From: a virus | Lineage: Duplodnaviria > Caudoviricetes | IMG/VR virus record: IMGVR_UViG_3300035670_000121 | Span: 21,616-85,615 of that record | Length of the DNA stretch: 64,000 nucleotides | Strand: one strand, 5' to 3' | Made by a program: the position numbers and the translations under genes | Shown: positions 2,838 through 60,335 of the stretch, in pieces | Position numbering within the stretch: the first letter of the stretch is position 1 | How the letters are laid out: every line of letters starts with the position of its first letter | Notes under the pieces: generated by a model | Told to the model about the DNA's origin: nothing | What the model saw: the letters and a program-made list of their open reading frames with translations, nothing else | Database searches by the model: none

Positions 2838-3203
2838 ATGAATATCGTAACTAAACTTCTAACATATCAAAATCAAGTTAAAATTTTGCATTGGCAAACA
2901 ACGTCATACTCTGAACATAAATCATTAGGTGATTTATATGACGGCCTTTCTGAACATATCGATCAATTTGTTGAAGTGTTTATGGGTAAATATGGTAGAA
3001 TTGTAAGCCCATCAACATTTCATTTAATTCTCGAAAATTATAAAAATTTAGGTCCAATGTCCCTCATGAATGAGATGGAAACGTATTTGGTAAACGATGT
3101 GCCAACAATGTTAGACGCTAAGAAAGATACTGACTTGTTAAATATTAGAGATGAAATGTTAGCTGATGTAAATAAAACCAAGTATCTATTAACTTTAAAG
3201 TAA
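2838..3203 (+). CDS. Ferritin/Dps-like four-helix protein (DUF5856-like)
   Basis: HWQTTSYSEHKSLGDLYD...IDQFVE and LLNIRDEM...KTKYLLTL pattern. Confidence 0.7.
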   Translation: MNIVTKLLTYQNQVKILHWQTTSYSEHKSLGDLYDGLSEHIDQFVEVFMGKYGRIVSPSTFHLILENYKNLGPMSLMNEMETYLVNDVPTMLDAKKDTDLLNIRDEMLADVNKTKYLLTLK

Positions 3204-3788
3204 TTTATAATTGGGATATTTCTTAGATAAAGCTTTTGCTAAAATAGCATGATGATTAGAGTTATGTTCTAAAGCTGCATGTCTGAGTGAGTTATAAACA
3301 ACTCCATCTATTTCAATTTTTGTACCTCTTGTTTGGCTCATCTTAAGTTTGGTTTCATTTGAATGAGTTAAACCAAACATTGGACCATTTGGATATTTTG
3401 TTTTGGCATTTTTTCTTCTTTTGTCTTTTAAATTTTTACAACAAGCAGCTTTTCTTGTGTTTTCGAGTTGCTTTTTTCTTATTTGTTCCTTAAAAGGATG
3501 ATTAGAAATCATATCTCCACCAGAAGCGTTTTTATTAATATTAAAAGCAGGTTTAAGCGTGTCTAAATAATATTGTTCTTTTTTCTTAACGTCGTCACAT
3601 AATTCTATTATTTCTAACCATAAAGTTTCTTCACCATATTTATTGAAATGTTGCTGCAACCAATAGTTTGAATGATTATTGTTTTTTAATTGAGACAAAT
3701 GCCTATTCCATCTTTTTTTAATATTGATAGAACTTCCTATATAAAAATCATTATTGATTTTGTTTTTTATTTTATAAACGCCTTTCAT
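3195..3788 (-). CDS. Free-standing GIY-YIG homing endonuclease with NUMOD3-like tail
   Basis: GVYKIKN...FYIGSS...KRWNRH...EQYYLD; PMFGLTHSNETKLKMS. Confidence 0.9.
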   Translation of the reverse strand: MKGVYKIKNKINNDFYIGSSINIKKRWNRHLSQLKNNNHSNYWLQQHFNKYGEETLWLEIIELCDDVKKKEQYYLDTLKPAFNINKNASGGDMISNHPFKEQIRKKQLENTRKAACCKNLKDKRRKNAKTKYPNGPMFGLTHSNETKLKMSQTRGTKIEIDGVVYNSLRHAALEHNSNHHAILAKALSKKYPNYKLL

Positions 3789-5429: not shown

Positions 5430-5750
5430 ATGAATAAAAGACGGTTATTACAAAAACTGTTGTTTGCGCCTAATAAAAAGAATCCAAAATTCTGGCAGAA
5501 ACAATATTCTTTATTAAATAAATTACTTAAAGATTTTCCCGATATGAAATTCTGGGAAACTCATGAGTTTGATAAAGTAAATTGTCTAACTTTATTTCTA
5601 GCCGAAAGAAAGTATGAAATAACAGATAAATATAAATGGTTCCTTTTTCAACCTGAATTTAAGAATCCAGAAATAAACATAGGCGATAAAACGGGTGATG
5701 ATTATAATATAGAAAGCAAACCAAAAACAATTAAGCAATTTTTAAAATGA
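5430..5750 (+). CDS. Hypothetical protein
   Basis: ORF, start moved to the ATG after the promoter; overlaps recA start. Confidence 0.7.
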   Translation: MNKRRLLQKLLFAPNKKNPKFWQKQYSLLNKLLKDFPDMKFWETHEFDKVNCLTLFLAERKYEITDKYKWFLFQPEFKNPEINIGDKTGDDYNIESKPKTIKQFLK

Positions 5751-6922
5751 GTAGAAAATCAAAAGACGAATCAACTGAAGCAGGAAGTATATTAACTTCT
5801 CAAGAACAGCTTAAAAGCTTTCTTAAGCAGAATAAAGAGTCGCATTATAATTTTGAAGAAACTATAGATTATCGCGTATCTAGCGGTAGTTTAATTTTTG
5901 ACTATAAACTAGGTGGCGGTTTAGGCACTGGATTGCATCGTTTTGTAGGTATGAACGAAGGCGGCAAGACTAGTTGCGCTTTACAATTCATGAAGAATTT
6001 TCTAGATACTCAAAAAGACGGTAAAGGTTTTTATATTAAAGCCGAAGGACGATTGAGTAAGGAAATGATTGAAAGGTCTGGTGTTAAGTTTGTTTTTTCA
6101 GAAGATGAATGGGTAAAAGGTACTTGTTTTGTATTTGAATCTAATATTTATGAAACTGTATTTGATGCGCTCAGACTTCTAGTTGGTAAAAATGATGAAA
6201 AGAATAGGTATTTCTTTTTGTTAGATTCTGTAGATGGTCTTATCAGAAAAGGCGATTTAGATAAGACTTTTGAAGAATCTCAAAAGGTTGCTGGTGGAGC
6301 CGTTATTGCCGCTGACTTAATGAAGCGCATGTCTATTTCGCTTCAAAAGCGTGGGCATATATGCATATTTATTTCACAGGTTCGTGCAGATATCAAGCTA
6401 GATCCATATAGCAAAGCTCCAATTCGTCAAACCAGCGCGACTGGCGGTAATGCACTATTGCATTTTGCGAATTGGATTATTGAATTCGAACCTCGTTTTA
6501 AAGGCGATCTAATTCTACAAGATGAAAAAGCTAACTATGATGAATATAAGAATCCTTATATTGGTCATGTTGTAAAAATAACAGTTAAAAAGTCAACTAA
6601 CGAAAAGACAAATTCTGTTATCAAATATCCAATTAGATACGGTCGCAAAAACGGAACATCAAATTGGATAGAAAAGGAGATATTTGATTTTCTATTAATG
6701 TGGAATTTTGCTGAACAAAAAGGAGCTTGGATAAATTTCGAAGAAGACTTTTTAAACATTCTTAAGGATGCAGGTTTTACAGATTTTCCTGAAAAGATTC
6801 AAGGGTCTGCAAAATTTGAAAATCTAATGAATGATAATGAAGCTTTGAAGAAGTTTTTGTTTAAATATATCAGTGAAAATCTACTAAGCTTTGGCGATGG
6901 AATTTCTGACGCTGACCAATAA
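5747..6922 (+). CDS. recA: RecA/UvsX family recombinase
   Basis: Walker A GMNEGGKT, Walker B FLLDSV, IFISQVR, TGGNALLHFA. Confidence 0.9.
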   Translation: MSRKSKDESTEAGSILTSQEQLKSFLKQNKESHYNFEETIDYRVSSGSLIFDYKLGGGLGTGLHRFVGMNEGGKTSCALQFMKNFLDTQKDGKGFYIKAEGRLSKEMIERSGVKFVFSEDEWVKGTCFVFESNIYETVFDALRLLVGKNDEKNRYFFLLDSVDGLIRKGDLDKTFEESQKVAGGAVIAADLMKRMSISLQKRGHICIFISQVRADIKLDPYSKAPIRQTSATGGNALLHFANWIIEFEPRFKGDLILQDEKANYDEYKNPYIGHVVKITVKKSTNEKTNSVIKYPIRYGRKNGTSNWIEKEIFDFLLMWNFAEQKGAWINFEEDFLNILKDAGFTDFPEKIQGSAKFENLMNDNEALKKFLFKYISENLLSFGDGISDADQ

Positions 6923-52619: not shown

Positions 52620-52922
52620 ATGATTGTTCAATATATTCACGATCCAAAAAAGAATAAGCTGCGTGGCGTTCTTGTGGCAAGACGACCAATGGAAAATAAT
52701 TTTCCAATTATTAGTTGGTCATACACAAACGTAAAAGCTGGTGATCGCTTTGACAAGATTCGCGGTTATAATATTGCAGTTTGTCGTTTTACGACGAAAA
52801 CCAATGCGGTAATTCCGCATCATGTTAAAAAAGTGTGTAATAATTTTAAGAAAAGAGTTGCAAAATACTATAAAGTAGATATAAATAGTATTAATATTGT
52901 TGGTAAGGGTGAGAATTTTTAG
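52620..52922 (+). CDS. Hypothetical protein
   Basis: ORF track. Confidence 0.65.
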   Translation: MIVQYIHDPKKNKLRGVLVARRPMENNFPIISWSYTNVKAGDRFDKIRGYNIAVCRFTTKTNAVIPHHVKKVCNNFKKRVAKYYKVDINSINIVGKGENF

Positions 52923-52928
52923 TTAGTG

Positions 52929-53003
52929 GCCTCCTAAGCATAGGCAGCGATGCAGGGGTTTTGTAAACCTCAGAGTTCGGCGCAAGCCCGGAAGGAGGCT
53001 CCA
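52929..53003 (+). tRNA. tRNA-Thr(UGU)
   Basis: GCCTCCT/AGGAGGC, loop TTTGTAA, atypical T-loop CGCAAGC, CCA. Confidence 0.88.
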
Positions 53004-53069
53004 CTTCAAAAAATCGCTTGACAAGTGTGTGTGTTTGATGTAGAGTTAGTGCGTTGAAAGTGAGTTAGT

Positions 53070-53146
53070 AGCAGGTTGGAGAAGTAGTCTATCTCGTCAC
53101 GCTCATAACGTGAAGATCGCTGGTGCAAATCCAGCACCTGCTCCCA
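53070..53146 (+). tRNA. tRNA-Met(CAU)
   Basis: AGCAGGT/ACCTGCT, TCACG-CTCATAA-CGTGA, CCA. Confidence 0.88.
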
Positions 53147-53205
53147 AATTTTTCTCTCTTGACAGAGGCAATATTCTAAGATAGAGTATTGAAGTTCTTT
53201 AAAAT

Positions 53206-53279
53206 GGGATCGAAGCATTAAAGTGATGCAATGGTCTTTTAAACCATAGAAGAGGGAGCGTTACCCTCCGGTCCTACCA
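53206..53279 (+). tRNA. tRNA-Lys(UUU)
   Basis: GGGATCG/CGGTCCT, ATGGT-CTTTTAA-ACCAT, atypical T-loop, CCA. Confidence 0.88.
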
Positions 53280-53306
53280 ATTTATTTTTGTTCTTTTTAT
53301 AATTAC

Positions 53307-53578
53307 GGGCCTTTAGCTTAATGGTTAAAGCAGCGAACTCATTTAATAAAAGTGCCTTATAGAAGAAATTCTATATTGAATCGCGTCAAAGTCGGTGAAA
53401 CCTAAACTACAAATAGTAGGCAATACCGAGCCAAGCTGTAGAAATACAGAAGGTGTAGAGACTTGACGGCGCGTTCCTAAAGTAGAAATACTATGGAAGT
53501 GGTAAAGTCCAGAGAGAATAGAAATATTCACAAATCCGAATTCGTTGAGTGAAGGTTCAAATCCTTCAAGGCCCCCCA
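53307..53578 (+). tRNA. tRNA(CAU), probably Ile2, split by a group I intron (exons 53307-53342 and 53539-53578)
   Basis: GGGCCTT/AAGGCCC; spliced arm GCGAA-CTCAT|AA-TTCGT; TTCAAAT; CCA. Confidence 0.9.
53343..53538 (+). mobile_element. Group I intron (IC3, Azoarcus-like), 196 nt, at anticodon 36/37
   Basis: P1 CAU/GUG with U.G; core GTCGGTGAAACC...ACCGAGCCAAG...GGTGTAGAGACT...AAAGTCCAG; terminal G. Confidence 0.92.
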
Positions 53579-53580
53579 TT

Positions 53581-54255
53581 TTATTCTGTTCTTTTACATT
53601 TTGAATCAATAATATTTGTTATTATATCTACAAATTTTTGAACTCTGTCTGGTTTGAAATAAGAAATACTAGATACATCAATAATGCATAATTCTATATT
53701 CCGTTCTAAACAAGCTTGAAATTTTCTTTGATCATTATTTTGTGTTCTTAAAAGTTTTTCTTTACCATAAATAGGTTCATAATGAAAAATACCATTTAAT
53801 TCAAAAGCTAATTTCAAATCAGGAATATAAATATCTAACTCAGAATTAATAGTATCAATTCTATTAAAATGAAATTCTAAATCAGGATAACGATTTGGTA
53901 AAATTTCAGATAAATAAATTTCAAATTTAGATCTTCTACAACCATGAGTTTTATGAGTGTTGTTGTATGTTGCGGCGCATGATCTGTTACAAAAAGAATT
54001 TGGATGCCTTCGATGTTCTCCTGCTACTTTGAAAAATTCACTTCCGCATTGCTTGCATTCAACTTTAATTTTTGTAATTTGTTTAATACCTTGGCATTTA
54101 TTCGAACAATAATGTTTTGTTTGATTCTTTAATTTAAGATCGCTTTTTATTTGAGCTTGTCTTCTTTTAAAAATTTTTTGACAAGAATCGCATTTAACAT
54201 CTAAAAGATCCATTGATTTATAATTAGAAATTTGATCTATAGAAATTAATAACAT
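53581..54255 (-). CDS. Free-standing homing endonuclease (Zn fingers plus Vsr/PD-(D/E)XK-like)
   Basis: CDSC, YCSNKC, CKQC, FCNRSC; ELDIYIP..AFELNGIFHY...DQRKF..C. Confidence 0.82.
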   Translation of the reverse strand: MLLISIDQISNYKSMDLLDVKCDSCQKIFKRRQAQIKSDLKLKNQTKHYCSNKCQGIKQITKIKVECKQCGSEFFKVAGEHRRHPNSFCNRSCAATYNNTHKTHGCRRSKFEIYLSEILPNRYPDLEFHFNRIDTINSELDIYIPDLKLAFELNGIFHYEPIYGKEKLLRTQNNDQRKFQACLERNIELCIIDVSSISYFKPDRVQKFVDIITNIIDSKCKRTE

Positions 54256-54356
54256 AATATATATTATATACATGATAAGATTCGAAATGTGAAATTCAAA
54301 TCTTTTGATGTTGACAAGAGCAAGTTTTCAGAGTAGATTGTTCGTGTTCTTTAAAT

Positions 54357-54431
54357 GCATCTGTAGCTCAATTTCAGAGCCAACTCTTTATAAGGGTTAG
54401 GTTGCGCGTGAGAGTCGCGCCAGATGCACCA
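54357..54431 (+). tRNA. tRNA-Ile(UAU)
   Basis: GCATCTG/CAGATGC, AACTC-TTTATAA-GGGTT, A73, CCA. Confidence 0.85.
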
Positions 54432-54499
54432 ATTTTTCCCTTGACAAAGGGCGTATCCAATAGTAGGATATGTACGTTCTTTAAAATTGAAGGTTCTGT

Positions 54500-54781
54500 C
54501 GGGCAGTGGCGAAATGGCAGACGCATTATTACGGTGCATTTATAGCGAAAGCTATATCTAAACGGTGTAAATTCGGCGAACGGTTTAACCTCCCAACGCC
54601 GAGCGAAATCTCGAAAGAGAGACGTGTAGAGACTATAATCACCCATCTAAAGTAGTAATACTAAGATGAAGGCATAGTCCAGACTACAAACAGAGAAATC
54701 TGGTAACGAAAGTTATAGTAGTACGCAGACTTAAAATCTGAAGGTAGAAATACCGTAGGGATTCGAGTTCCCTCTGCCCGA
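54500..54781 (+). tRNA. tRNA-Leu(UAA) split by a group I intron in the anticodon stem (exons 54500-54526 and 54726-54781); no encoded CCA
   Basis: CGGGCAG/CTGCCCG, D arm GCGAAATGGCAGACGC, spliced arm T|CAGA-CTTAAAA-TCTGA, long variable arm, TTCGAGT. Confidence 0.85.
54527..54725 (+). mobile_element. Group I intron (IC3-like), 199 nt, at tRNA position 27/28
   Basis: P1 GCAU/GUGC with U.G; AAATTCGGCGAA, ACGCCGAGC, GTGTAGAGACTA, AAGGCATAGTCC (P7 GACTA/TAGTC); terminal G. Confidence 0.9.
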
Positions 54782-54803
54782 CAGAGCCTTTAATTTATAA
54801 ATT

Positions 54804-54994
54804 TTGCAGCAATGAGGGCAGTCGTCACTAAGACGTAGCTTAAGGTAGCCAGTGAAAAGCCTCTCGGAAAGGATCTGGTAGAAATCAGGACATTTAATTA
54901 GCGTAAAGTAGATGATGCTTTTCGAATCATCCGAGCTAAAGTATGTCGATATCTGATTGGGAACACATTAAGCACTGAACAACCTGATCTGCAA
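54804..54994 (+). ncRNA. Unclassified structured RNA, long copy
   Basis: TTGCAGCAATGA...TGATCTGCAA closing helix; several internal helices; covaries with 54998-55085. Confidence 0.75.
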
Positions 54995-54997
54995 TTT

Positions 54998-55085
54998 TTG
55001 CAGCAATGACGGGAGTCGGTAATTGACCGTAGTTTGGGGCGCTGGAAATTCCGGGCACCAGACAACTCAGCGACGTGATCTGCAA
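54998..55085 (+). ncRNA. Unclassified structured RNA, short copy
   Basis: Same termini and three-way-junction core as 54804-54994. Confidence 0.75.
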
Positions 55086-55094
55086 AAAAACATA

Positions 55095-55149
55095 CAGTGC
55101 GCCCAAGCGATCTTGTTTTGAGTCGCTTTACACTGAGCAAAAAATGGGC
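55095..55149 (+). ncRNA. Candidate pseudoknotted RNA
   Basis: CAGTG/CACTG, GCCCA/TGGGC crossing, AGCGA/TCGCT hairpin. Confidence 0.45.
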
Positions 55150-55170
55150 ATTTAGTTCTTTTATAATAAT

Positions 55171-55266
55171 TTTTAGGTTCAACCGCTAATGAAAGGTGTC
55201 ACCTATTGGTTTAGGGGATGGACACTGCGGATCGGAAAATAACCAATACACCGCATGAACCTAAAA
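55171..55266 (+). ncRNA. Candidate structured RNA
   Basis: 11-bp closing helix TTTTAGGTTCA/TGAACCTAAAA plus internal helices. Confidence 0.55.
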
Positions 55267-55268
55267 TT

Positions 55269-55346
55269 TCTTGCTAGAAGGAGAAAGAGGCTCATGCCTC
55301 TGTCCTGTAAGTTTTTAAATAAACGAGAAAGGCACTTTTAGCAAGA
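55269..55346 (+). ncRNA. Candidate structured RNA
   Basis: 12-bp closing helix TCTTGCTAGAAG/CTTTTAGCAAGA; AGAGGC-TCAT-GCCTCT hairpin. Confidence 0.5.
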
Positions 55347-55351
55347 TTAAT

Positions 55352-55427
55352 GCCCCGATGATGAAATTGGATATCATGTTTCGCTTCTAACGAAAACTTC
55401 CAGATTCGAGTTCTGGTCGGGGTGCCA
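55352..55427 (+). tRNA. tRNA-Arg(UCU)
   Basis: GCCCCGA/TCGGGGT, TTTCG-CTTCTAA-CGAAA, CCA. Confidence 0.9.
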
Positions 55428-55434
55428 CTTTAAC

Positions 55435-55509
55435 TCTAGAGTATTTCAATGGTAGAAAAGCGAACTGTTAATTCGTTAGTTGGAAGTTCGAGTCTTCCCT
55501 CTAGAGCCA
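55435..55509 (+). tRNA. tRNA-Asn(GUU)
   Basis: TCTAGAG/CTCTAGA, GCGAA-CTGTTAA-TTCGT, G73, CCA. Confidence 0.92.
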
Positions 55510-55513
55510 ATTT

Positions 55514-55659
55514 TTATTCGATGTCAGCAGGCTCACTATGCTGAAAAAAGATATATTAGTTCGAAATAATATAGTCGTGGAGAGTGAGTGGGTTAATTTA
55601 TATGCAAATATAAATAATAATAAGCTTCTAGAGCTTTCCCTTAAACCAACATCGAATAA
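55514..55659 (+). ncRNA. Candidate structured RNA between tRNA-Asn and tRNA-Tyr
   Basis: 11-bp closing helix TTATTCGATGT/ACATCGAATAA; four hairpins including a GCAA tetraloop; possible pseudoknot. Confidence 0.55.
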
Positions 55660-55662
55660 TTC

Positions 55663-55744
55663 GGGAGTATCGTATAGCAGCAATTACAGGAGACTGTAAA
55701 TCTCCCGGCGCAAGCCTACATAGGTGCAAGTCCTATTGCTCCCA
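55663..55744 (+). tRNA. tRNA-Tyr(GUA), no encoded CCA
   Basis: GGGAGTA/TGCTCCC, GGAGA-CTGTAAA-TCTCC, long variable arm. Confidence 0.9.
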
Positions 55745-55754
55745 TTTTTCTTTT

Positions 55755-55943
55755 ATGAAATCATCTACAGCTACATTAATTAAAGCATTAGATATACTAT
55801 CTAATGAAATACAATCAGAAGATGGTGTTGCTAATGCTGCATTAGCTGAAGCGGCAGATAGACTAAAAATGCTTGACAAGCGTGTTATTGAACTAGAAGA
55901 TACGATATATAATGTAATCAAGCAACTGGAAGAAATTCAATAA
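55755..55943 (+). CDS. Hypothetical protein
   Basis: ORF track. Confidence 0.65.
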   Translation: MKSSTATLIKALDILSNEIQSEDGVANAALAEAADRLKMLDKRVIELEDTIYNVIKQLEEIQ

Positions 55944-55945
55944 AA

Positions 55946-56143
55946 TTGAACATTCATGTTCCAGAAGAGATAAGAAAAAAATATCCACATATAGAATTTC
56001 GCGGTAAACTTAAACGAATTAAGAATCGCGATGTTCTTGTTGCGTTTAATCCTGCATTAAATACTACATTTCATTATTCTTTTCAAGAAGATTTTTTTTG
56101 GTTCGCGGGTCAGATACCTGATTATATTTTAGATGTCACATAA
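55946..56143 (+). CDS. Hypothetical protein
   Basis: ORF track. Confidence 0.55.
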   Translation: MNIHVPEEIRKKYPHIEFRGKLKRIKNRDVLVAFNPALNTTFHYSFQEDFFWFAGQIPDYILDVT

Positions 56144-56277
56144 GAAACATTATACTATTTAATGTTTCATATACTGAACAATATTTATTTAAATGATTAA
56201 TTTTGTAGTTTGGCTGAGTATTTTCTTGCTTCTTCTTGCTGTTGCGATTACTGTTTTGTTCGACGAAGATGACGATC

Positions 56278-56520
56278 ATGAAAATTAATGCTATTCAATG
56301 CCCTTCTTGCGGCGATATCGTTTTCAGCCGCGCACGTCACGATATGCGATGGTGTAATTGTGGCGAAGTTGCCATAGATGGCGGTTTCGATTATGCTAAA
56401 GTCAGTTATTTAACTTCTTCTCCTAAACGAGTTGAGATTGAAGTAAATGCTACAAAAGCTGAACTATATAATGATTGGAATAATCGTATTGATAATTTTG
56501 GTTTAATTAAAAATAAATAA
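56278..56520 (+). CDS. Zn-ribbon phage protein (C..CGD...RHD...C.CG.VAIDGG)
   Basis: Motif. Confidence 0.7.
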   Translation: MKINAIQCPSCGDIVFSRARHDMRWCNCGEVAIDGGFDYAKVSYLTSSPKRVEIEVNATKAELYNDWNNRIDNFGLIKNK

Positions 56521-57797: not shown

Positions 57798-58469
57798 ATG
57801 AAATTGCTTGATCTATTTTGTTGTGCTGGCGGCGCTGGCATGGGTTATAATAAAGCTGGTTTTGATGTTACTGGTGTTGATATTAAAGATCAGCCTAATT
57901 ATCCTTTTACATTCATTAAAAATGATGTAATGGAAGTATTACAAGATAAAGATTTCTTGTCTCAATTCGATGTAATACATGCCTCGCCACCTTGTCAAGG
58001 TTATAGCAAAGCAACAAAAGATGATTCAGTTTATGTTCATTATTCTCAAGGCAAGCAAACTCCTAAACTGATTGAACCAGTTAGAAATGCTTTGATTCAG
58101 ACTGGTAAATACTATATTATTGAAAACGTTGTTGGCGCAAAGAATGATTTGATTGAGCCGTTTTATTTGACTGGATTTATGTTTGATCTGCCGATTGAAC
58201 GTAAAAGATTTTTTGAAACAAATTTTCCAGTCAAACAACCTGAAGCAAAAGCAAAGCGAGGCTTTACTAAAAAATACGCTGAAAAGAATAACATAGATTA
58301 TCGCGATATGAGCGTTACTGGAAAGTCTCGTCGCAAAGGCTCGATTGATGTATGGCGCAAAGTCATGGAAATGCCTTGGGCTGGTCGCGGTTGGGAGTTG
58401 ACAGAGGCTATACCTCCAGCATATACTCACTACATCGGTGAGCAACTGAAGGTGCATCTGAAAAATTAA
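57798..58469 (+). CDS. DNA cytosine-C5 methyltransferase (short phage type)
   Basis: LDLFCCAGG, HASPPCQ, IENV, R.R.FE, EAIPPAY. Confidence 0.85.
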   Translation: MKLLDLFCCAGGAGMGYNKAGFDVTGVDIKDQPNYPFTFIKNDVMEVLQDKDFLSQFDVIHASPPCQGYSKATKDDSVYVHYSQGKQTPKLIEPVRNALIQTGKYYIIENVVGAKNDLIEPFYLTGFMFDLPIERKRFFETNFPVKQPEAKAKRGFTKKYAEKNNIDYRDMSVTGKSRRKGSIDVWRKVMEMPWAGRGWELTEAIPPAYTHYIGEQLKVHLKN

Positions 58470-59398: not shown

Positions 59399-59758
59399 AT
59401 GTTTAAATTCAGAGTCTGGGATAAGAAAAAAAATAAGTATTTAGATAATAGTTATGCACAAGCTATTACAAATAATGGTAAACTAATTATTGGCGACAGT
59501 GATTACTATACTTCATTTACAAATACAAATGAAGATGACTATATTGTAGAATATTGTACCGGATATAAGTCTATAAATAATGAAGATATTTATGTAAATG
59601 ACTACATTGAGTATAAGCTAGGTTTGAAAATGGTTCGCGGGCGAGTTGTCTATGATCACTTTGCATATTATGTTGCCGAGATTCGCGGTGGTTATATGCA
59701 ATTTACTCAGCAAAATTATACAATAATTGGTAATTATAATACAAATCCTGTTAATTAA
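59399..59758 (+). CDS. YopX family protein
   Basis: FKFRVWDK...YCTG......IY..D...IIGN. Confidence 0.75.
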   Translation: MFKFRVWDKKKNKYLDNSYAQAITNNGKLIIGDSDYYTSFTNTNEDDYIVEYCTGYKSINNEDIYVNDYIEYKLGLKMVRGRVVYDHFAYYVAEIRGGYMQFTQQNYTIIGNYNTNPVN

Positions 59759-59764
59759 TAAAAT

Positions 59765-59986
59765 ATGAAAGCAAAATTAGAGTACAATTTGCCCGAGGAT
59801 CAATCGCTGTTTGATGCTGCCTGTAAGGCAACTGATATGCGGAGCGCCGTTTCTGATTTCGATAATGAGCTTAGAAATTGGATAAAGCACGGCCACGATT
59901 TTAAGAATGCCGACGATGCTTTAGAGAAGGTTCGAGAGTCTTTGTATGTTTACTTAAATAGTTATGGTATAAATATACATGAGTAA
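59765..59986 (+). CDS. Conserved phage hypothetical (MKAKLEYNLPED)
   Basis: Motif. Confidence 0.7.
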   Translation: MKAKLEYNLPEDQSLFDAACKATDMRSAVSDFDNELRNWIKHGHDFKNADDALEKVRESLYVYLNSYGINIHE

Positions 59987-60335
59987 TTACATATTCAGAA
60001 TTTGGGATAAAGAAGCTCAAAAATATGTAATGACCGGCGCACTTTACGGATGTGAAGGTGTTGCCGGTTTATCTACTTATTTCAATCGTAAAACACATAT
60101 TGTACAACAATTTAGTGGCTTGACTGATGTAAATGGTGAGAAGATTTTTGAAGGCGATGTATTAAAATATGGAACCAAATTAGGCATTGTTAATTTCACT
60201 TATGGATGTTTTTATGTTGACAATCTTGCATTGAATGAGTTTATTTGTAATGAAATTTCTGCTTCAATGGATTATCCGTGGATTGAATTAGAAAAATTTG
60301 GTAATGTATTAGAACATCCACAATTAATTAAATGA
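59979..60335 (+). CDS. YopX family protein
   Basis: FRIWDK...QFSGLTDVNGEKIFEGD...GNVLEHP. Confidence 0.8.
   Translation: MSNYIFRIWDKEAQKYVMTGALYGCEGVAGLSTYFNRKTHIVQQFSGLTDVNGEKIFEGDVLKYGTKLGIVNFTYGCFYVDNLALNEFICNEISASMDYPWIELEKFGNVLEHPQLIK

Follow-up and report, generated by a model that had tools for sequence, protein, structure and literature searches.

Two paralogous RNA genes in a phage tRNA cluster

The window analysed here is a stretch of 64,000 nucleotides (nt) of DNA, bases 21616–85615 of the 85.6-kb virus record IMGVR_UViG_3300035670_000121 of a lake phage, which is estimated to be 58% complete. All positions below count from the first base of the window. Among its tRNA genes the window carries two adjacent genes for a small structured RNA, here called U1 and U2. 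They are paralogous and lie on the + strand. U1 (54804–54994, +, 191 nt) is the long form and consists of a handle and a multi-helix inner domain, the cargo, of approximately 135 nt. U2 (54998–55085, +, 88 nt) is the short form, in which the handle carries a three-way junction with two hairpins. The spacer between them is TTT. The covariance model of this type of unit (type A; model R1) gives 71.8 bits for U1 (E 3e-16) and 93.2 bits for U2 (E 5e-22). A first-pass annotation, made from the letters alone, had pointed out two adjacent units of 191 and 88 nt with shared ends, and an exact string search of the window found them where it had put them: TTGCAGCAATGA occurs exactly twice in the 64 kb (54804 and 54998), as does TGATCTGCAA (54985 and 55076).

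In U1, the 5′ strand of the closing stem P1 (TTGCAG, 54804–54809, +) pairs with CTGCAA at 54989–54994; the corresponding strands of U2 are 54998–55003 (+) and 55080–55085. P1 is paired in 99.4% of the alignment cells, with changes on both sides at two of six pairs (the TTGTGG/CCACAA variant). The stem is followed by the conserved 5′ loop CAATGA (54810–54815 in U1, opposite TGAT at 54985–54988; 55004–55009 in U2, opposite TGAT at 55076–55079; both +). In the 53 distinct sequences described below, the C, A, T, G and A of this loop are invariant (53/53), whereas its third base is either A (51 sequences) or T (two). Next comes a 2-bp helix, CG with CG in U2 (55010–55011, +, with 55074–55075) and GG with CC in U1 (54816–54817 with 54983–54984). 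It changes from G-C to C-G on both sides in five of the 53 sequences and is unpaired in none. A five-base bulge on the 3′ strand is AACAA in U1 (54978–54982, +), where it faces the single purine 54818, and AGCGA in U2 (55069–55073, +) and most relatives. Its alignment columns (269–273) hold A in 53/53, G in 39/53, a variable base, G in 49/53 and A in 53/53. The cargo is enclosed by P2, in U2 GAGT (55013–55016, +) with ACTC (55065–55068), which shows changes on both sides at three of its four pairs in type A and at all four in the second handle type (type B, below).

The pairings listed in the first-pass annotation can be read directly in the sequence of the two units: GG/CC against CG/CG, CAGT/ACTG against GAGT/ACTC, the hairpin CGTC-5nt-GACG against CGGT-5nt-ACCG, the TA linker, and GCTTAA/TTAAGC against GTTTGG/CCAGAC. 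Minimum-free-energy folding recovered the proposed fold of U2 (z = −2.44) and was uninformative for U1 (z = −0.10). Folding energy alone is thus weak evidence, and the case rests on comparison with relatives.

A family defined by its handle

A pattern scan of viral contigs returned nine stretches, of which eight were homologous units, all eight within tRNA clusters; the remaining one, L008, is coding DNA that matched by chance. The next scan was anchored solely on a pseudoknot that lies 3′ of U2, and was hence blind to the unit itself. It returned 31 stretches, 28 of them true, and in 27 of the 28 a unit lay directly upstream, each starting with TTGCAGCAATGA. Two of these 27 units are truncated by the end of the locus; at L036 the pseudoknot stands alone, with no unit. 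When a metagenome scan was passed through R1, strong matches were obtained in 39 of 80 loci (none in the other 41) and then in 18 of 39 metagenome loci (none in 21). Besides L008, the loci L021, L023 and L027 were set aside as chance matches.

Alignment to the model gave 68 units, 53 of them distinct. Over these 53 sequences, 97.2% of 1448 cells are paired, and both partners have changed at 15 of the 28 pairs; the sequences are related, so that cell counts overstate the number of independent events. None of 500 shuffles reached any of five measures, and shifted controls had 24–39% of cells paired with one to four both-side-changing pairs. The compensatory change proposed from the two copies in the window is therefore upheld in their relatives. 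The same is true of the inner domain of U1. Across its seven distinct long versions, RNAalifold finds 52 predicted pairs, and both partners change at 11 of them. The helices ATCAG/CTGAT, GAC/GTC, AGC/GCT and GATGAT/ATCATC are among those that change, and GCCAG/CTGGT does not vary among the seven. All wide searches used exact patterns, and the breadth of the family and the variability of its loops are underestimated and biased.

The same alignment bears on whether the locus works as RNA at all. One alternative is a repeat that acts at the DNA level, either a recombination site or a miniature transposon with inverted ends, and the unit ends do form a 6-bp inverted repeat. Another is that the units belong to a 94-codon open reading frame (ORF) overlapping them on the minus strand (54898–55182). 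However, compensatory changes occur in seven helices, and RNA-library contigs cover the units. Type-A units range from 88 to 96 nt in single-base steps, not in multiples of three, and G-U pairs, which fit the + strand only, are frequent (U-G in 43 of 53 sequences at one pair). These length steps and G-U pairs exclude the minus-strand ORF and fix the + strand, which is also that of the tRNAs. We regard a DNA-level or coding origin as scarcely credible. A mini-ORF starting at the ATG within CAATGA was rejected, as changes in loop length break the frame between relatives.

Other routes to relatives gave little. With the region as query, blastn in distant mode had no match among 50,697 phage records, tblastn of a 1008-amino-acid protein of the window had none either, and the search for distant relatives through neighbouring proteins led to just three close loci. 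A genome-contig scan yielded two true units (L213 and L198) among the 80 stretches listed of 88; both are on short contigs of uncultured or draft assemblies, so that no reliable host can be named. The models R1 and R2 (R2 is described below) found no additional copies in the window, in G000 or in G001, a complete 174.5-kb relative.

A second type of handle emerged from two loci (L076 and L104) in which a unit of 133–134 nt with TTGTGG...CCACAA ends stands in tandem with ordinary units. It reads TTGTGG-TCATTGA-GGG ... CGA-CC-TGAG-CCACAA. A scan of viral contigs for this type-B handle, GGTCATTGAGG...ACCTGAGCC, returned 47 stretches, and two more scans, each with one loop left free, added six true members; 10 of the 16 new loci in the first loop-free scan and all nine in the second were chance matches. 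With the 5′ loop free, only UCAU (32), UCAC (2) and CCAA (1) were seen; with the 3′ loop free, no true member with an altered 3′ loop was found among the nine new stretches. In total, type B comprises at least 35 distinct RNAs on unrelated phage contigs, with a unit G+C content of 0.36–0.69 and with cargo that is unrelated between lineages. Their size is 78–136 nt in the stretches extracted, counting a 7-bp P1 on each side, and such small size suits direct tests. In the 28 aligned type-B RNAs, all nine pairs that the pattern had not fixed (five in the outer P1 and four in P2) change on both sides. Pairing is 98.4%, compared with 26–46% in shifted controls, and the covariation score is 0.80, compared with at most 0.14.

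Three observations link types A and B. They stand in physical tandem. Each is detected by the other's model: with R1, which represents type A, the 133–134 nt units score 19.7 bits, and with R2, for which only type-B sequences were used, U2 scores 25.1 bits (E 1.4e-5) and units in L104, L054 and L010 are found as well. Finally, two units (L319:777–876 and L320:778–877) are hybrids in which a type-B handle carries type-A-like cargo, with the GGGAACACAT element known from the long form and a hairpin of the CGTCAACTAAGATG type. They suggest that cargo and handle recombine.

Written as RNA, the 5′ strand of the handle runs P1 (6–8 bp) – (U)CA – (A/U/C)UGA – GG – G/A – P2, and the 3′ strand runs P2′ – AGCGA – CC – UGA(U/G) – P1′. 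Besides P1, the handle is made up of the invariant loop CA(A/U)UGA opposite UGA(U/G), the 2-bp G-C helix, the AGCGA-type bulge facing one purine, and P2. The loop bases are invariant or nearly so in the 53 distinct type-A sequences. In type B, AGCGA is conserved although the search pattern had fixed only its last A, and the G at its second position, seen in 39 of the 53 type-A sequences, is present in at least 90% of the 28 aligned type-B sequences. The handle, of approximately 35 bases, is kept nearly letter for letter across units of 36% to 69% G+C while all else changes, a pattern that suggests a specific partner common to many hosts or phages. The first-pass annotation had described a conserved handle with swappable cargo; many other phage contigs have this handle too, joined to cargo of no relation, and it is the defining feature of a family spread over many unrelated phages.

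The expected absence from Rfam was also borne out by covariance-model comparison. With Rfam 15, the whole window gave only tRNAs at gathering scores. The region 52800–56200, searched at E up to 10, and 12 loci with type-B units, searched at E up to 1, gave nothing on the units. The six or seven tRNAs that ARAGORN and the tRNA model of Rfam detect in the window do not include the units. We found no description of this RNA in the literature; the 8,495 unnamed candidate structured RNAs from IMG/VR (PMC10690425) may include the family.

Genomic context and expression

The last strong promoter-like site upstream of the tRNA-Leu gene and the units is TTGACA-17-TAGGAT (54441–54469, +), a consensus match only, with 10 of 12 positions agreeing. 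It is one of four strong, nearly identical promoter-like sites on the + strand (53018, 53159, 54311 and 54441) of the form TTGACA-17-TAG(A/G)(G/T/A)T, each with a GTTCTTT-type leader after it. These sites suggest that tRNAs, singly or in small groups, are served by promoters of their own. Within U1 and U2, neither promoter-like nor terminator-like sites were called; one terminator-like hairpin was called at 54772–54786, at the 3′ end of the tRNA-Leu gene. Co-transcription with the tRNAs, which the first-pass annotation had assumed, is plausible in that the nearest promoter-like site lies upstream of tRNA-Leu; on the other side, no RNA contig joins a tRNA to U1 within the window. From these observations we infer that the units are transcribed together with tRNA-Leu.

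The units are present in RNA libraries. Logan contigs from four metatranscriptome runs, belonging to four studies, cover 54799–55148 at a depth of 3.6–216; these are assembled contigs of relatives, placed with a likeness of at least 85%. Both the U1/U2 and the U2/pseudoknot junction are bridged, and one of the contigs runs from inside U1 to 55148, two bases short of the 3′ end of the pseudoknot. The segments 53524–54563 and 55188–56000 are without such cover, and gaps of this kind are no evidence of silence.

The pseudoknot itself (55095–55150, +) follows the last unit, is conserved in relatives and is likely a 3′ module of the same transcript. CAGTG/CACTG crosses GCCCA/TGGGC, with a nested hairpin and an A-rich linker, and the pairing covaries (variant CAGTGCCCCCAAGAGGA...). 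Among 91 type-A units, the strict pseudoknot follows after 5–12 nt in 76 and a variant in five, and in another five a further unit comes first; of the rest, two are cut, two (L054 and L070) are followed by other sequence, and one is a chance match. The pseudoknot may protect the 3′ end. It is unlikely to be a ribozyme of the hepatitis delta virus (HDV) kind, and that reading was dropped, the linker having no conserved C at the place expected of the catalytic one; linkers such as AGAAAAAAA occur.

Upstream of the same 91 units, a tRNA 3′ end lies 2–5 nt away in 34, and the other neighbours are conserved RNA modules, another unit or a GTTCTTTT leader. Given such varied neighbours, the region is an island of shuffled RNA modules. 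Three more non-coding modules (55171–55266, 55272–55310 and 55513–55665) are conserved in order or shuffled in relatives, and none has an Rfam match.

The tRNA-Leu(UAA) gene at 54495–54790 holds an insert of approximately 200 nt that is rich in GNRA loops, and because of this insert it is not called by ARAGORN. The insert looks like a group I intron, but no intron family of Rfam matched it at E up to 10. In L004, a close relative, the tRNA-Leu(taa) is 86 nt long and uninterrupted. RNA-library contigs cover 54564–54771 in this region. Another tRNA, at 53206–53276, is called by Rfam (43.2 bits) and not listed by ARAGORN. Downstream of the RNA island are a DUF7695 protein (56236–56520), a truncated-looking C-5 cytosine methylase (57798–58469) and two YopX-family proteins (59399–59758 and 59979–60335).

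Type-B units are often distant from tRNA genes. Their neighbours are diverse and include endonuclease, head, tail and terminase genes. In L273 a unit (5677–5768) sits between the genes for the major tail protein and the tail assembly chaperone, and in L297 one sits just upstream of the small terminase gene; both are unusual places for a small RNA gene. In L272, a 28.7-kb viral contig, ARAGORN predicts a tmRNA gene (3203–3532) approximately 800 nt from a type-B unit.

The handle as a possible recognition platform

Each RNA consists of a handle, formed by its two ends, and an inner cargo domain that can be freely replaced. Transcription of the units would start at the tRNA-Leu promoter and take in the pseudoknot downstream, and the units would accumulate as stable RNA. 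The sequence of the handle is fixed while the surrounding helices covary and the cargo is swapped, and this argues that the handle is a site of sequence-specific recognition. Our tentative reading is that it is such a platform on a stable RNA, probably bound by protein and kink-turn-like, and we hold this as a possibility somewhat short of an even chance. The handle would most likely be a protein-binding site of the kink-turn or tandem-GA kind, and the RNA may act in infection as a small ribonucleoprotein, serving as a decoy, scaffold or adaptor. The partner would probably be a host factor common to many bacteria, or an unrecognized phage protein. A conserved handle that tolerates different cargo could also serve as an RNA tag.

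The main loop can be drawn in two registers. In register (a), P1 forms the C stem and is followed by a three-nucleotide bulge (AAU or AUU), by G.A and A.G pairs, and then by the 2-bp helix; all four G and A bases are invariant. A simple kink-turn is defined by a three-nucleotide bulge with G.A and A.G pairs on its 3′ side (PMC5061560), and register (a), with its AAU/AUU bulge and then GA opposite GA, is compatible with that definition. A Watson–Crick pair after the G.A pairs marks kink-turns that cannot fold with only metal ions present (PMC4382518), and the protein-bound kink-turn of U4 small nuclear RNA (snRNA) is placed at the poorly folding end of the range in PMC5061560. The tandem-GA signature with a Watson–Crick pair, as the handle has it, resembles this class, and on that ground we favour a small ribonucleoprotein.

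Several observations weigh against this interpretation. Register (a) comes at the price of an additional U, placed between the G-C helix and the A.G pair, and of a C.U pair beside the bulge in type A. Register (b) fits equally well and is the one picked by RNAalifold; it is an unbroken helix with a CA bulge, in which two UGA strands face each other around a central G.G. One position pair covaries in support of it (A-U 51, U-G 34, C-G 2, A.G 1). The kink-turn likeness seen by the first-pass annotation is thus a candidate reading, with the bulge and tandem-GA signature on its side and these features against it. The invariance of the type-B loop is partly imposed by the search patterns. The RNA evidence consists of contigs of relatives, in which DNA carry-over is possible and RNA ends are invisible. 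The first-pass annotation had named L7Ae-like and Ro60 proteins as partners to test and had considered a Y-RNA-like cargo. Neither PF01248 (L7Ae) nor PF05731 (TROVE/Ro60) was found in the phage genomes G000 and G001 (0/2 in each case), and no Y RNA or YrlA family of Rfam matches the units, so neither idea fared well. The co-occurring protein gene that it had also envisaged did not emerge: ten neighbouring proteins in the window and ten beside type-B units share no common RNA-binding family, and none of the ten tested is a conserved neighbour of type-B units.

If the conserved part were instead a tRNA-like processing handle, P1 and the next helix would mimic the acceptor/T-arm minihelix, RNase P and the tRNA 3′-trimming enzymes would excise the RNA from tRNA operon transcripts, and the cargo would be the working part. 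The tRNA-like features of the units are limited to a 7-bp closing stem and N-CCA. P1 has 7–8 bp in 23 of 29 distinct type-B units. If P1 is counted as 7 bp, the bases after it read N-CCA in 8 of 35 distinct units and N-CCU in 5 of 35; the eight N-CCA units carry six different P1 sequences, so that the signal is not that of a single lineage. In L293 and L301 the type-B unit occupies the slot between tRNA-Ala and tRNA-Val, with spacers of 1–5 nt, and the close tRNA 3′ ends upstream of 34 of the 91 type-A units fit as well. An enzyme as universal as RNase P would also agree with the broad range of G+C. Processing by RNase P, however, needs no invariant loop bases; CCA is missing from most units, those of the window being followed by TTT or AAAAAC; the tRNA finders do not see the units; RNA contigs run across both junctions; and many type-B units stand alone, with no tRNA at all in 13 of the 21 loci scanned. 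We consider this explanation rather unlikely. Another proposal, in our judgement improbable, makes the handle the core of a small self-cleaving ribozyme that belongs to a new class and processes phage transcripts. The size (70–135 nt), the roughly 20 invariant internal-loop bases between freely covarying stems, the optional cargo, the tandem copies and the scattered positions in unrelated phages would all fit, and there is a precedent in the theta ribozymes, which trim tRNA 3′ trailers and lie at most 5 nt from phage tRNAs, often tRNA-Leu (PMC10879173). Against it, the Rfam searches described above gave no known ribozyme family (E up to 10 in the window region, up to 1 in the 12 type-B loci), and RNA contigs pass uninterrupted through both units. 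To our knowledge, conserved phage RNA motifs are mostly not ribozymes. Hairpin-ribozyme and twister look-alikes seen by eye were dropped, having no Rfam match.

By analogy with the T-box Stem I apex, RNase P and the ribosomal L1 stalk, the handle might also dock on the elbow of tRNAs, the AGCGA bulge acting as a T-loop that forms a stacking platform with the invariant UGA loops. It would then grip host or phage tRNAs, and the cargo would set which tRNA is held or its fate, be it protection from anticodon nucleases, sequestration or sensing. The AGCGA bulge would fit the AG..A consensus of such docks, but the partner pentamer UG..A is missing, and we think this reading very improbable. If true, it would be a fourth use of the motif, trans-acting and virus-encoded.

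In interdigitated double T-loop modules (the T-box Stem I apex, J11/12–J12/13 of RNase P, the L1 stalk), the core is made of six bases, AG..A and UG..A, and AGCGA matches the AG..A of T-loop 1 (PMC3664808). The unit, like T-box Stem I, has a GA-motif loop. It differs in having no contiguous UG..A pentamer and in its topology. The HDV-like theta ribozymes of gut phages resemble the units in being structured RNAs a few bases after phage tRNA genes, often tRNA-Leu, and they are built as a nested double pseudoknot with the catalytic C at the first position of J4/2 (PMC10879173). The units have no nested double pseudoknot and no HDV-family match in Rfam.

With the protein-dependent kink-turns, such as the U4 snRNA 5′ stem-loop and box C/D RNAs, the handle, read in register (a), would share a stem, an AAU bulge, GA facing GA and a short G-C helix. 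The bulged strand CAAUGAGG of the units is presumably identical to that of human U4. The Watson–Crick pair after the G.A pairs would place it in the class for which metal ions do not suffice (PMC4382518), the end of the range at which protein-bound U4 stands (PMC5061560). In contrast to these kink-turns, the handle has an extra U in the non-bulged strand, a C.U pair by the bulge in type A and a second conserved bulge, AGCGA, 2 bp away, and it occurs in a phage without an L7Ae-family gene.

Extra small RNAs of unknown role in phage tRNA clusters have been known for fifty years, from species 1 and 2 of phage T4. Their genes, rnaC and rnaD, are annotated as small stable RNAs with no function named (NC_000866), and, like U1 and U2, they are tandem small non-tRNA RNA genes inside a phage tRNA cluster. 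R1, run unfiltered on the T4 region, gave at most 7.3 bits, with nothing at the strand and place of rnaC or rnaD, and rnaC ends in a tRNA-like T arm, which the units do not have. Judged by sequence and by structure, the T4 RNAs are unrelated to the units. With U1 and U2, one such RNA of a tRNA cluster is now placed in a large family outside Rfam.
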